In this document: positions 22,790 through 33,248 of the stretch, piece after piece
How positions within the stretch are numbered: the stretch's first letter is position 1
Layout: each line of letters starts with the position of its first letter
Origin: Eledone cirrhosa
Lineage: Eukaryota
Direction of reading: 5' to 3'
NCBI GenBank assembly: GCA_964016885.1
Contig: OZ024752.1
Span: 21,080,001-21,144,000 of the forward strand
DNA: 64,000 nt
Made by a program: the position numbers and the translations under genes
The notes under the pieces: generated by a model
The model's database searches: none
What the model was told of the DNA's origin: nothing
What the model saw: the letters and a program-made list of their open reading frames with translations, nothing else

Positions 22790-22843
22790 ATATTTCGTTT
22801 CTGAATTTGTTATTGGCAACATGACCCTCCCAAAGTATAACAA
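22790..22843. mobile_element. ~55-bp micro-insertion made only of the two termini of the 30.3-33.3 kb PLE family
   Basis: TTTCGTTTCTGAATTTGTT = reverse complement of ~33229-33247; ATTGGCAACATGACCCTCCCAAAGTATAACAA = reverse complement of ~30259-30290; absent from the paralogous (TA)n at ~18800-18840. Confidence 0.9.
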
Positions 22844-23944
22844 TATATATATATATATATATATATATATATATATATATATATATATATATATATTCTT
22901 TTTATATTTTTTTAATTTCCCCTCGTCTTTAACAGCACTCTTCAATTACATCTAACTCTTATTTATCATATCTATATGCTTTAATATAATTTTATCAATA
23001 TAAATATACCCATCAATTAAATTAATTTATATTCTTTTCATAGATGTAAATTCCATATATATTTTTTTCACTAACACTTTTATCGTAAAATTTTAGTCTC
23101 CTTAGATATTTACATTGGCATTATTCTTTTATAACAGCAACTTTTCGTGTTACCTTTCACTGACCTGACCTATTTTCACCCCTAAAATAACCTTTTCATT
23201 CTTAATACTCCTTCCATTCAAAACTGAAATCTGCCTTCTTCTACCCCTAAAATAAACTTCAATTACTACTATTTTACCATTTGGCCAATTATTACCTTTC
23301 TATTGGTTAATTCAAAACCTGTTCCCAAACAGACCTACTATATTAAGTCTTTGTTGGTTTTATTCATTGAACAAATATAATTATTTCTGAGGTCAGCATA
23401 TGACCTATTCTCATCCCTAAAATAATCTTTCATTCATAATATTCTTTCCATCCAAAACTGAAATCTACCTTCCTCTACCCATATATTAAGGTTCTTTTAC
23501 TACTATATTACTATCTTGACCTTCACTATCTTTCTATTGGTCAATTCAAAACCTGTTCGCAAACAGACCTATTGTATTAAATCTTTGTTGGTTTTTTCAA
23601 TAAACAAATATCATTATTTCTGAAGACAGCATATATATGTGTAGGTATGTATATTCCCTCTGATAGTTTGTAAAAGTTTTACATAGATCTATAGGATATG
23701 CATACCAACACTAACATATATATCCTAGAAACGATCGTAAAATGATGAATTATTTAATATAAGGAACTGTTTCTTTGTTTATTCATTATTTTATTTATTT
23801 ATCTTGACTCTGTTTTCCGTTAATTTTCACCGAAAAATTTTTTTGAATACATCTCTTTTCATGATATTCGGATTACATTGAGTTCTTCATACGGATTGGA
23901 CACTACCGTACATTTTGGTAGATTTATCTACATATATATATATT

Positions 23945-24145
23945 GCACTCAGTGCTCCTTTGGGAGCCCCTACATGGACACACTAGAGGGGGATGACCAA
24001 GGTTAACATATGTTGATGCCCTAAGGACAGACACTGGTCTGTTGGAGATGCAGGATATGGCAGCGATAATGAGGGACAGAGACCGTTGGAGAGAACTCGT
24101 CCATGGATCTCGGGAATTTTACCCGCCTTAGATAGAGAGAGAGAT
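23945..24145 (+). mobile_element. RTE (BovB-like) 3' end fragment
   Basis: Translates to ..[27 protein letters not shown], the typical RTE ORF C-terminus. Confidence 0.75.
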
Positions 24146-28800: not shown

Positions 28801-29725
28801 CATATTGGTGCTGTGGTCATATACTGTGAATAGAGCATCGTCACGATATAATCCGCCGCCCAGGCAGGGGATTTCATCTTTTATCTGCTTCAGCAGGTAG
28901 AGCCAAACCAGGTCCGTTACCTGCGCTGAGTCGCTGGAGCCCATCGTGATGTCAAAATTATTTGGCCAATTACTCCTGGTCCAAAGGTCTCCATCGAAGC
29001 GGATTAAGGTCTTTCTTGCGGCGTGGATGATGCTCACCTCCTCTCGGGTTAGGTCCGTATTAGACATCGCTAAAAATAGGGCCTTATTAAGTACTATGGG
29101 TGAGATTGAGGAGTAGTAGCTTGCGATGTCCAGTTGTATAAAGCTGGTCCTACTTTTCTCATGTAGTATTTTGAACCATTCTATTACTTCTCCCGTGCAT
29201 GACCATTGCTGTAATTTAGTTTTCTTCCGAAGCTTCTGACTGAGGAATGCTCTCAGAACTGACCAATGGGAAGTGTGACACTTTTTTTGTTATTTTGTTC
29301 CTTTAACACCTTGTCCCTTCTACCATTTTATCAATTTTTTAAGCTAACTCCAACAATAACAACACTTAGAATGAGGAATGTTCTAATAACTGACCAATGA
29401 GAGGAGAAGAGGACCTTTGACACTGAAATTCGTTTGTTTGAATTCATATGATTCTAGTTCTTCAGTGAAATAACAACCCAACAAGGAACTGGGCATATCA
29501 GAGTATTGACAATATTATACACCTCAACAACATATGTACTTGTCTATACCATACTAATTCAAACTGCCTGAAGAGGTCACAGCCAAAGATGGCTGTCACT
29601 GAAATATATATAGCAGTAATAAACGAAGCTAAATTTTAATCATTTGACTTTTATTTAACTTTATTTTACACTACTCCGGAGTAACCAAACCAACCTGCGC
29701 ACTTCGTCGGGTGCTCCGGATTGCA
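25870..29725 (-). mobile_element. PLE: long arm (RT-GIY-YIG ~27220-29232, 3' pLTR to 25870) and inverted arm 29233-29668 with tail
   Basis: FDITMGSSDSAQVTDLV, GGLYRDD, WYNPPYS, CNCRNPESCPLGNEC..LVYGC; 29233-29668 is the reverse complement of ~25871-26307. Confidence 0.93.
29563..29617 (+). ncRNA. Type-I hammerhead motif (inverted copy 25922-25976; relative at 34526-34581 minus)
   Basis: ACTGC CTGAAGA GGT-C-ACAGCCA-AAGA-TGGCTGT-C-ACT GAAA TATATA TA GCAGT; the 34.5-kb relative shows a compensated stem II (ATAGCCA/TGGCTAT). Confidence 0.9.
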
Positions 29726-30258
29726 TACTGAGGTGTTGGTATACTGAGGTGTTATTAATATTAGAATATAAATATTAATAAAATATTGTTGTACATCCGA
29801 AATATGTATAATAAAATGTAATTGATCAAAAGAACATCTATTTTATTAATATTTATATTCTATATATTTATATTCTATATATATATATATACATATATAT
29901 ATATATATATATATATATATATATATATATATATATATATATATATATATATATAGTAGAATAATCGAGTATCGAAAAATCGGCGCACGAGTTCACGATA
30001 AACAAAATTCGAGATGAGCGGCAGAGGGCTCTATAATTCAAATAAATTAGAGCTATAACTATCGTTAAATACCGTCACACGTAGAATATGTCTACAATCA
30101 ACCAAATAACCGATAAGTTCGATATGGAAGATTCGGGACACTCAGATAAATTATCAATAAATCAATAAAATATATATATATATATATATATACATATATA
30201 TATATACATACATATATATATATATATATATATATATATATATATATATATATATATA

Positions 30259-33248
30259 TTGTTATACTTTGGGAGGGTCATGTTGCCAATAAGAAACACA
30301 CGCACCAGTTGCTTTCACTTCAATTTATTATAATAAATTTATAATAAATTTATAAATTTATAAATTTATAAATTTCTGGTTGGTTGGTTGGTTCCACAAC
30401 CAGATAGTTGTTTATATATAGTCATAGTTCTTTCGTCACACACTCTGTGACCTCTTCAGTGACTGGGGATTCCTTTCTTTGTTTCTGTGCCTCTCCTTTG
30501 TTCTGTCCTACGCCATTTTGTTTCTGTGTGTGTGTTGTGTGCTCAGTCTGCGCATGCGCCACATCCGGGTGTCTGTGTGTGTTTATGTTCATTTATTTAT
30601 TTGTTTATTTACATGTTACTGGTTGGTTGTTTGTTCAATGTGTGTGAGTGTTTTCATTTTGTCCTTAATTGCAAGTTGTGATGTTGCTGTTCCACTCATA
30701 TTTTCTATTTAATTTTGGTTGTAATTCTTTTATGTTTATTGCCTCTGTAATTTGTCTAAACATTGCGTCTTTTCTGTGTGTAGATTCTATTTTTATTTCT
30801 ATGTTCTCAAATTAACCCTTGTGTTCTATTTTAGCATGTTGGTAGAGTACAGATGATTCTTTATTATCTTGAAGGTCTCGCCAGTGTTCATTTATCCGTT
30901 CCCCTACACTACGACCTGTCTCACCTATGTACACTATATTTTTGTCTCTACATTGTCCTTCAGTACATCTTATGCTATACACTACATTTCTAGTTTTACA
31001 GTTAATATGGGGGCTTATTTTACAGGTTATACATTTCTTATCTATACATGAGGGTCTTTGAAAAGGGTATGTCTTGCTAATAAGTGTTTTTACGGAGGTA
31101 CCTGGTCGTTCTACTATCTTAATATTGAGTTTATGTTTATTTAGTGCCCTTCTAAATTTGTAAGCTAATTCACCTCTAGGGGATGTATCGATGAACATTA
31201 CACTCTGGTATTTATTGCTATCATACAATGAGTTTATTCTATTAGCCTTGTTCCTAGTTCTTTCTATTCTATTCCAAAATTTGCTCCTATACAACTTTGC
31301 TACTTAAGCTTACCTATAGTAATAATTACCTAGACACATATGACCTTAGCAACCTGTGCCCTACAAGACCAGCAAGAGGCAGACCACCTACCATTACCTC
31401 AATGGCCAAGAAAACCCACACAGATAGATGGAACGGGTGGACCAGAGCCATACGGACACCCGAAAACCACGATGAACTGAAGAAAATGATTGCACATGCG
31501 GTAGGGGCCAGCATAAAACTAACCCTTAAGGAACATATGTTCAAATTTAATGGAAAAACATATGCCCAAGAGGAAGGAGCAGCCATTGGTGTTAGCATTG
31601 CAGGCGACATAGCTAACTTATTCATGGTATGGTGGGACAGTAGACTTAAACTTAAACTTAAAGAACAATTAGAAGACCCCTTAACCCTGATAATGTACTC
31701 CCGCTACGTAGATGATATAAACATCGTAGTTAAGACACCCCCACTAGAGAACAGTCAGGAACTAGAGAAAAACACAATGGAAAGCATCCAGTAAATAGCA
31801 AACTCCATCCACCAGAGCATTAGAGTTACTATAGACTACCCAAGTAAACACCCCAACCATCGATTACCTGTACTAGACACAGAGCTCTGGTTAGATACCA
31901 TTAACAACAAAAAACAAATCCTCCATTCCCATTATGCCAAACCCATACTTCCAAACATCTGATCCACCGAAACTCGGCCGTTTCGGACCAAACCAAAATC
32001 AACATACTGATTGCGGATTTGGTACGGGTGATGAGAAATGTGTCCCGCATGTGAAACCCCGAAGAACTAGAGAGACAGATACAACACTTCATCCACCGTA
32101 TGCAGTTCTCTGGCTACAATTAGAGAGATAAAATCAGAGTGTATAGAGGAGCCAGAACCAAATGGGAAAACATGGTAAATAATGACATAAATGGGACCTG
32201 CCCCTTGTATAGGAGCAAATTTTGGAATAGAATAGAAAGAACTAGGAACAAGGCTAATAGAATAAACTCATGGTATGATAGCAATAAATACCAGAGTGTA
32301 ATGTTCATCGATACAACCCCTAGAGGTGAATTAGCTTACAAATTTAGAAGGGCACTAAATAAACATAAACTCAATATTAAGATAGTAGAACGACCAGGTA
32401 CCTCCGTAAAAACACTTATTAGCAAGACATACCCTTTTCAAAGACCCTCATGTATAGATAAGAAATGTATAACCTGTAAAATAAGCCCCCATATTAGCTG
32501 TAAAACTAGAAATGTAGTGTATAGCATAAGATGTACTGAAGGACAATGTAGAGACAAAAATATAGTGTACATAGGTGAGACAGGTCGTAGTGTAGGGGAA
32601 CGGATAAATGAACACTGGCGAGACCTTCAAGATAATAAAGAATCATCTGTGCTCTACCAACATGCTAAAATAGAACACAAGGGTAAATTTGAGAACATAG
32701 AAATAAAAATAGAATCTACACACAGAAAAGACGCAATGTTTAGACAAATTACAGAGGCAATAAACATAAAAGAATTACAACCAAAATTAAATAGAAAATA
32801 TGAGTGGAACAGCAACATCACAACTTACAATTAAGGACAAAATGAAAACACACACACACATAGAACAAACAACCAACCAATAACATGTAAATAAACAAAT
32901 AAATAAATGAACATAAACACACACAGACACCCGGATGTGGCGCATGCGCAGACTGAGCACACAACACACACACAGAAACAAAATGGCGTAGGACAGAACA
33001 AAGGAGAGGCACAGAAACAAAGAAAGGAATCCCCAGTCACTGAAGAGGTCACAGAGTGTGTGACGAAAGAACTATGACTATATATAAACAACTATCTGGT
33101 TGTGGAACCAACCAACCAACCAGAAATTTATAAATTTATAAATTTATTATAAATTTATTATAATAAATTGATGTGAAAGCAACTGGTGCGTGTGTTTCTT
33201 ATTGGCAACATGACCCTCCCAAAGTATAAACAAATTCAGAAACGAAAT
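30259..33248 (+). mobile_element. PLE of a different clade: inverted arm 30259-31292, RT-GIY-YIG remnant 31293-32834, 3' pLTR
   Basis: QEEGAAIGVSIAGDIANLFM, YSRYVDD, LPVLDT, NVVYSIRC..YIGETGRSVGERINEH; 30259-31292 is the reverse complement of ~32206-33232. Confidence 0.93.
33035..33079 (+). ncRNA. Minimal type-I hammerhead motif (inverted copy 30420-30464)
   Basis: AGTCA CTGAAGA G GTCACA-GAGTG-TGTGAC GAAA GAAC TA TGACT. Confidence 0.88.

Follow-up and report, generated by a model that had tools for sequence, protein, structure and literature searches.

Penelope-like elements in (TA)n of Eledone cirrhosa end at two fixed template positions, each followed in the Hydra clade by a copy of one candidate RNA stem

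Penelope-like elements (PLEs) carry a tail at one end and an inverted pseudo-long terminal repeat (pLTR), an architecture that has been published (Craig et al. 2021, PMC8557442 Fig. 2; Arkhipova et al. 2013, PMC3846280) and whose origin is a stated open question (PMC8557442, PMC11167929; here and below, papers are cited for the sections covered). Here we analyse a 64,000-nucleotide (nt) stretch of the 3.0-Gb genome of Eledone cirrhosa (contig OZ024752.1, 21,080,001–21,144,000; the window), which is rich in (TA)n and PLEs. The two arms of a PLE in (TA)n each end at a different, fixed position on the template: one at a short end, the other at a long end beyond a family-specific tail. In the Hydra clade, copies of a predicted stem begin 6–9 nt downstream of both positions, and one RNA probably binds two subunits of the reverse transcriptase (RT)–endonuclease, each priming one end of a double-strand cut. 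An earlier note on this sequence had proposed a short/long rule and, from it, priming of both DNA ends from two positions on the RNA; the rule and most of that inference are not new, because they lie near the published picture (PMC8557442, PMC3846280, PMC11167929). What the note missed is the duplicated putative RNA stem that marks both Hydra-clade ends. Judged by sequence comparison, this twin stem is a new cis-element on a known PLE architecture; it is undescribed in the PLE literature searched, including the covered parts of PMC4209133, PMC5737381, PMC10085705 and bioRxiv 10.64898/2026.07.22.740005, and older Penelope papers or figure supplements might mention it.

We named six families after their window copies: A (30260–33246), B (17899–23931, plus a mini copy at 6265–6483), C (24281–25813), D (25871–29725), E (37464–38582) and F (11318–11724). 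The open reading frame (ORF) of family B (20092–22320) contains RT (YRDD) and VYKC..YIG motifs, the latter from a C-terminal GIY-YIG endonuclease; Pfam gave no match to this ORF, a weak RVT_1 match in family A and a GIY-YIG match in family E. For the PLE ORF protein, 112 homologues were found, and the window elements have pLTRs in partial tandem together with an inverted copy, as in endonuclease-containing (EN+) PLEs. Families B, C, D and F match the Hydra clade by its motif criteria (PMC8557442) or by N-terminal similarity. The family B linker reads CNCRNKANC, that is, CxCX5C, and its endonuclease lacks CCHH; the window copy reads RWR and HKT, and a related ORF at 2931 reads RWK and DKT, the Hydra motifs. 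A family D fragment has the linker LCNCRNPESC. The N-termini of C, D and F are similar to that of B, and C and F are placed by this similarity alone. Family A, with the linker CIDKECITC (CX4CxxC) and with C..C in the GIY-YIG core plus two histidines (CCHH), appears from its motifs to be of Neptune/Nematis type, and its tail overlaps the start of its ORF. The GIY-YIG of family E is also of CCHH type. The pLTRs contain a hammerhead core on the upstream side of the short end, in A, C and D by core scan and in B, E and F as read by eye; an Rfam covariance search of the window gave no hammerhead match.

In two-ended insertions a short end is paired with a long end almost without exception. Exact family A end words number 30,077 genome-wide, and 13,800 short and 12,002 long ends abut TA, with 0 matches to reversed-pattern controls; the short/long rule is thus reproducible beyond chance and far beyond the window. 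Of 94 distinct family A ends (loci L001–L093), 48 were short and 40 long, 1 was a read-through and 5 were other, so that 88 fit the proposal of two defined positions serving both ends of one cut. For an unbiased sample, the first 100 matches on contig C1 were reduced to 73 sites and their alignments read by eye. Short was joined to long at 41 sites (one uncertain), short to short and long to long at none, and long to a read-through at one; an inverted piece without a terminus was present at 7, and a single arm at 24, ending short at 14 of these and long at 10. Short thus meets long in every two-ended insertion of the sample that could be resolved (41 of 41), but insertions are not all two-ended. 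Such near-total pairing means that site choice is not independent, because independent choice of two sites would give half.

Other counts agree. In exact-end lists over 37 Mb, head-to-head family A pairs within 6 kb were short+long in 39 of 44; two of the five exceptions are true long+long insertions and three are separate neighbouring insertions. Among pairs picked blind to end type, short+long accounted for 17/17 in family C (one read-through pair set aside; plus 2 more), 18/19 in D (one pair set aside), 11/11 in F (two set aside; plus 1 more, with one listed pair left out) and 4/4 in E, window copy included, where the long ends scatter over several nt. A partner end was visible at 14 of 30 long-end loci of family B and was short in 13 and long in 1. 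Further families with equal asymmetry were seen in a qualitative scan of 464 kb around the window. Within the window, the copies of A, B (with its mini), C, E and F have inverted arms that face outward into (TA)n, one ending short and the other extended, as had been described; 29725, given as the end of family D, stops ~30 nt short of the family long end and lies outside (TA)n. Artefacts of assembly or of reads are a very improbable source of the inverted arms and micro-insertions, and so are separate insertions that abut by chance in a shared (TA)n. Repeat-rich (TA)n is hard to assemble, and three of the five apparent family A exceptions were indeed neighbours, but the arm ends are asymmetric and exact to the base, no TA separates the arms at their many different joints, and the arms lie head to head in 44 cases versus 10 in other orientations; the same architecture is found in unrelated assemblies and in print.

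Comparison with read-through copies revealed that in families B, C, D and F the word RCUC begins 6–9 nt after both end positions. It opens a candidate stem of the layout RCUC-P2-loop-P2′-YY-GAGY, in which the downstream GAGY pairs with RCUC behind a 2-nt bulge and P2 forms an inner helix. Short sites are mostly ACUC/GAGU and long sites mostly GCUC/GAGC, and the distance from stem to end is fixed at both ends though the loop (8–106 nt) and the tail (about 55–165 nt) vary. In a covariation test on 13 host sites that always took the first GAGY as partner, 31 of 39 P2 pairs formed versus 22 after permutation (p = 7e-4) and the first pairs were Watson–Crick at 12 of 13 (p = 5e-4); P2 pairing was seen only with the 2-nt bulge, other bulge sizes giving 9–16 pairs. 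Copies of four host families found by ORF start alone end 6–8 nt before five of six stems, the sixth being approximate, and the stem model from other organisms led to two more window families with fitting ends. A stem shared by both starts was sought in families A and E, and none was established; family A, from another clade, shows equal short+long pairing with a 7-mer, AAUAUCG, repeated at both starts.

The stem is also found well outside the host. An alignment search of metagenomes yielded 77 loci in 64 clusters (a single-protein search of metagenome contigs matched nothing), and 51 of the 64 clusters contain it. There, 234 of 318 P2 pairs formed versus 162 ± 7 after permutation (maximum 189 in 5000), although permutation values, here as in the host, overstate independence because related families share ancestry. 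The bulge read UU in 68, UC in 18 and UA in 11 of 106 cases. Under a strict rule, the stem occurred in 29/65 upstream regions versus 1/65 on the reverse strand, 6/325 ORF pieces and 100/6500 shuffles; under a looser rule, 29 of 55 loci had two copies of it ahead of the ORF, mostly 55–83 nt apart and near-identical in many families. TA junctions lay directly before the stem in 11 of 14 cases (7 flagged by script, 4 by eye). By eye, the stem was also recognized in published consensi of coral, sea-cucumber and sea-louse elements: Hydra-2_Amil, Hydra-1_Ajap (two copies), Hydra-2_Ajap and, with variants, Hydra-1_Crog. Rfam did not match it in the window or in the 6 scanned loci of the 77. Pair counts from the alignment that was fitted to the stem model tend to favour that model and were left out of the evidence.

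Template and (TA)n target are identical over 2–6 nt in TA register at 11 of 12 starts, a total overlap of 39 nt versus 11.8 expected from read-through templates. Together, the two positions, the stem and this overlap suggest a scheme in which the stem would act as RNA and anchor the RT, and a single RNA with two anchors would hold a pair of RT subunits, so that each end of a (TA)n break is primed. The 3′ ends of the cut DNA would anneal transiently to AU words in the RNA, and the downstream cDNA would displace the upstream one as it extends beyond the short site. Microhomology would then join both truncated cDNAs, a step of the earlier proposal that we infer, and one-armed insertions would result from failure of one primer. 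We see about an even chance that in the Hydra clade the duplicated stem works as an RNA ‘ruler’ that seats an RT–endonuclease dimer on one RNA, so that twin priming is programmed at fixed points of the (TA)n break; this would explain the tail, the inverted pLTR and the short+long pairing, and would echo telomerase RNA.

The smallest insertions bear on this scheme. As the earlier note had recognized, the window micro-insertion (22793–22842) is composed solely of two family A ends, and its paralogous site is pure (AT)n. The family A tail, put there at ~17 nt, is 60 nt in other copies, the copy ending at 33248 having lost ~45 nt between two TAA words; the micro-insertion thus combines the final 19 nt of the tail with the 31–33 nt before the short end. 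Only TT is common to both parts, with no template overlap, and micro-insertion joints sit on shared 2–6-nt words (microhomology); the arms of other two-ended insertions meet at microhomology too. Micro-insertions of this type (an 11–23-nt tail plus a short end) number 482 genome-wide, and 30 of 30 sampled were long+short; the reverse proportion was found 7 times and long+long 0 times. The pattern intended to capture short+short micro-insertions was an invalid control that matches long arms too: 10 of 10 sampled from its 83 matches were full tail plus short end, that is, long+short. Reads over 22300–23300 skip the repeat-flanked micro-insertion and are thus uninformative about it. A short arm cannot be templated by a long arm that consists of tail only.

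In most family A pairs, hundreds of template bases are covered by both arms. Across the 41-pair set, which includes 10 pairs selected as short+long, the length of one arm does not correlate with that of the other (Spearman 0.18, p = 0.26), there is no consistent difference in length between short-end and long-end arms, and the short arm extends further 5′ in 20. These features could also arise from two RNA molecules, one per DNA end, with an asymmetric protein dimer assigning the first and the second site to its subunits. Such an origin would suit the 1–3% difference between the arms of window elements as well as the rare true long+long insertions (two in family A, one in B and one in D), which tell against a strict one-RNA scheme. 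We nonetheless hold two RNAs to be quite unlikely: near-identical stems in many families leave nothing obvious to force different choices, matched truncations are in excess, and the arm differences fit later mutation. As a separate observation, 5′ truncations in family A cluster near −255, −190 (the hammerhead 5′ edge) and −155 (the hammerhead cut site) from the short end, and those in family B near −319 from the long end (the hammerhead core).

A different rival dispenses with the second start. Only the long site would prime; the cDNA would fold back, an endonuclease cut at the short position would resolve the hairpin, with the stem as a DNA mark, and later deletion of the palindrome centre by microhomology would leave unequal arms and micro-insertions. 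Short+long pairing follows from this automatically, and both self-priming (PMC3846280) and ‘EN-mediated resolution’ (PMC8557442) have already been proposed for PLEs. It also draws on two results that weigh against two starts on one RNA. Both arms are truncated at matched positions in 7 of 41 family A pairs (permutation p = 0.005), as folding back would give, and in about half of 18 short family D pairs; family D often ends both arms at a palindromic word, which each of the two models explains. Wobble counts at the stem (G-U 18, A-C 12; p = 0.18) leave its strand undecided, so that it could act as single-stranded DNA, and its function is inferred from sequence alone. Also against two starts on one RNA, the long arms of family B show no excess stop at the short site (arms below 130 nt: 10/30 long, 4/13 short), so strand displacement must be assumed. 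Added to these are five of the 13 host sites (G–K), chosen once the stem was known and without a clade test; other families of the 464-kb scan that have no stem; an earlier TA-overlap test, its null inflated by flanking repeats, that was not significant (p = 0.12); the family E long end, which has no TA overlap; and the purified Poseidon protein PAc of Anolis carolinensis, reported to start without homology to its target (Frangieh et al. 2024, PMC11167929). Even so, we consider fold-back unlikely. Of the 24 one-armed family A sites, 14 end at the short position; together with the short arms that extend further 5′ and the hundreds of tail-only long arms, these would all require later deletion. 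That both ends lie equally far from an equal stem speaks for a common reaction, and in vitro PAc starts synthesis at each of the two sites (PMC11167929). Two starts on one RNA thus remain our preferred reading.

Table 1 Positions of the insertions, arms and candidate stems in the window
Feature	Position	Strand	Remarks
Family A micro-insertion	22793–22842	.	Within (TA)n of element B
Micro-insertion, tail part	22793–22811	minus	Last 19 nt of the 60-nt family A tail
Micro-insertion, short-end part	22812–22842	plus	Last ~31 nt before the short end; joined over TT
Empty paralogous (AT)n site	18800–18840	.	Inverted arm of element B
Family A short-end arm	30260–31294	minus	Neptune/Nematis-type motifs
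Family A long-end arm	31295–33246	plus	Broken RT/GIY-YIG ORF; hammerhead core, predicted cut after 33074; tail with ~45-nt deletion
Family B short-end arm	17899–19250	minus	Matches Hydra clade
Family B direct part	19250–23931	plus	Inner pLTR, ORF 20092–22320, 3′ pLTR, 130-nt tail; long end 23931
Family B short-site candidate stem ACUC...UU-GAGU	23807–23883	plus	7 nt after short-end position
Family B long-site candidate stem GCUC...UU-GAGC	19947–20062	plus	7 nt after long-end position; read-through copy, 5′ untranslated region (UTR)
Family-B-type mini	6265–6483	.	~190-nt short arm (minus) and ~24 nt of tail (plus)
Family C two-armed insertion	24281–25813	.	Matches Hydra clade; ~86-nt tail; hammerhead core, predicted cut after 25676
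Family C short-site candidate stem	25733–25752		
Family D two-armed insertion	25871–29725	.	Matches Hydra clade; damaged long end; family tail ~97 nt
Family D short-site candidate stem	29673–29712		
Family F two-armed mini	11318–11724	.	Matches Hydra clade; ~100-nt tail
Family F short-site candidate stem	11368–11417	minus	
Family E two-armed insertion	37464–38582	.	CCHH-type GIY-YIG; ~44-nt tail
Further family	34645–34849	.	Long arm, palindromic centre, right arm stopping 8 nt before stem position
Candidate stem of the family at 34645–34849	34703–34739	minus	Second copy 39712–39748
Further family, partial tandem	48137–50260	minus	End 48137 is 7 nt before the first stem of a read-through copy
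Both candidate stems of the family at 48137–50260	49739–49900		Read-through copy

Beyond these features, the family B pLTR (18064–18532, 19250–19643 and 23166–23634) contains a 234-bp tandem repeat with a hammerhead-like CUGANGN core in each unit, resembling dimeric hammerheads or retrozymes. Low-complexity inserts are found in the family A ORF (L101:2298–6173), where a long Asn/Thr/His-rich stretch before the RT is like the N-rich inserts of Adineta Penelope, and in family B between RT and endonuclease (~21500–21830). More Hydra-type elements lie at 2931–5183, with an ORF start broken by a long (TA)n, and at 12945–16253; the PLE family ending at 12945 is very common among the fetched loci. 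Different PLE families repeatedly enter (TA)n beside each other's ends, giving chains of nested ends (L058, L173, L177, L187, L209, L225). A TA-bounded mini at 29955–30170 has a stem and a long-type end on its minus side; its plus-side end, identical in L099, mismatches the sequence before the predicted short site. In the flanks on contig C12 (offsets −140509, 84007 and 212454–218229 from the window start), a non-coding-looking tandem family with a ~430-bp unit has short and long ends 52–64 nt apart and lacks the RCUC/GAGY stem; it is probably non-autonomous and of another clade. Fragments of non-LTR elements with AP-endonuclease/RT (Pfam Exo_endo_phos, RVT_1) occupy 1–2267 and 55000–61200.

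Compared with canonical EN+ PLEs, whose published tails measure 30–40 nt, the tails here measure 44–130+ nt, short+long pairing has been counted and is near-obligate, and a stem is duplicated at both ends. PAc is the closest experimental parallel: it cuts and extends both strands in vitro at an AT-rich target, its RT starts at two internal sites bounding the tail, as proposed for the window families, and a dimer has been modelled (PMC11167929). The PAc starts, described as lacking homology to the target, are placed at an AC-rich stem-loop within the ORF, whereas those of the Hydra-clade families precede two copies of one stem in the 5′ UTR and mostly share 2–6 nt of TA identity; a duplicated element is not described for PAc in the covered text of PMC11167929. 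Families B, C, D and F resemble the published Hydra clade in the C-terminal GIY-YIG without CCHH, the CxCX5C linker, the hammerhead and insertion into (TA)n, and perhaps in RW[KR] and DKT-like motifs; published Hydra consensi carry the twin stem, which the covered sections of PMC8557442 do not mention. With a covarying, conserved element whose distance to each end is fixed, the origin of the PLE tail and inverted repeats becomes directly testable; near-obligate pairing means that any model must have two non-equivalent events at a single break; and the stem offers a rule for calling the ends of Hydra elements in repeat libraries. In L1 twin priming, too, both ends of a target break prime on one RNA and the inverted arm is joined by microhomology, but in L1 the internal annealing site of the second primer varies and there is no overlap between the arms, whereas here both starts are fixed and the arms usually overlap. 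PLEs are the sister group of telomerase RTs, and in telomerase it is the structure of the RNA that fixes the template.

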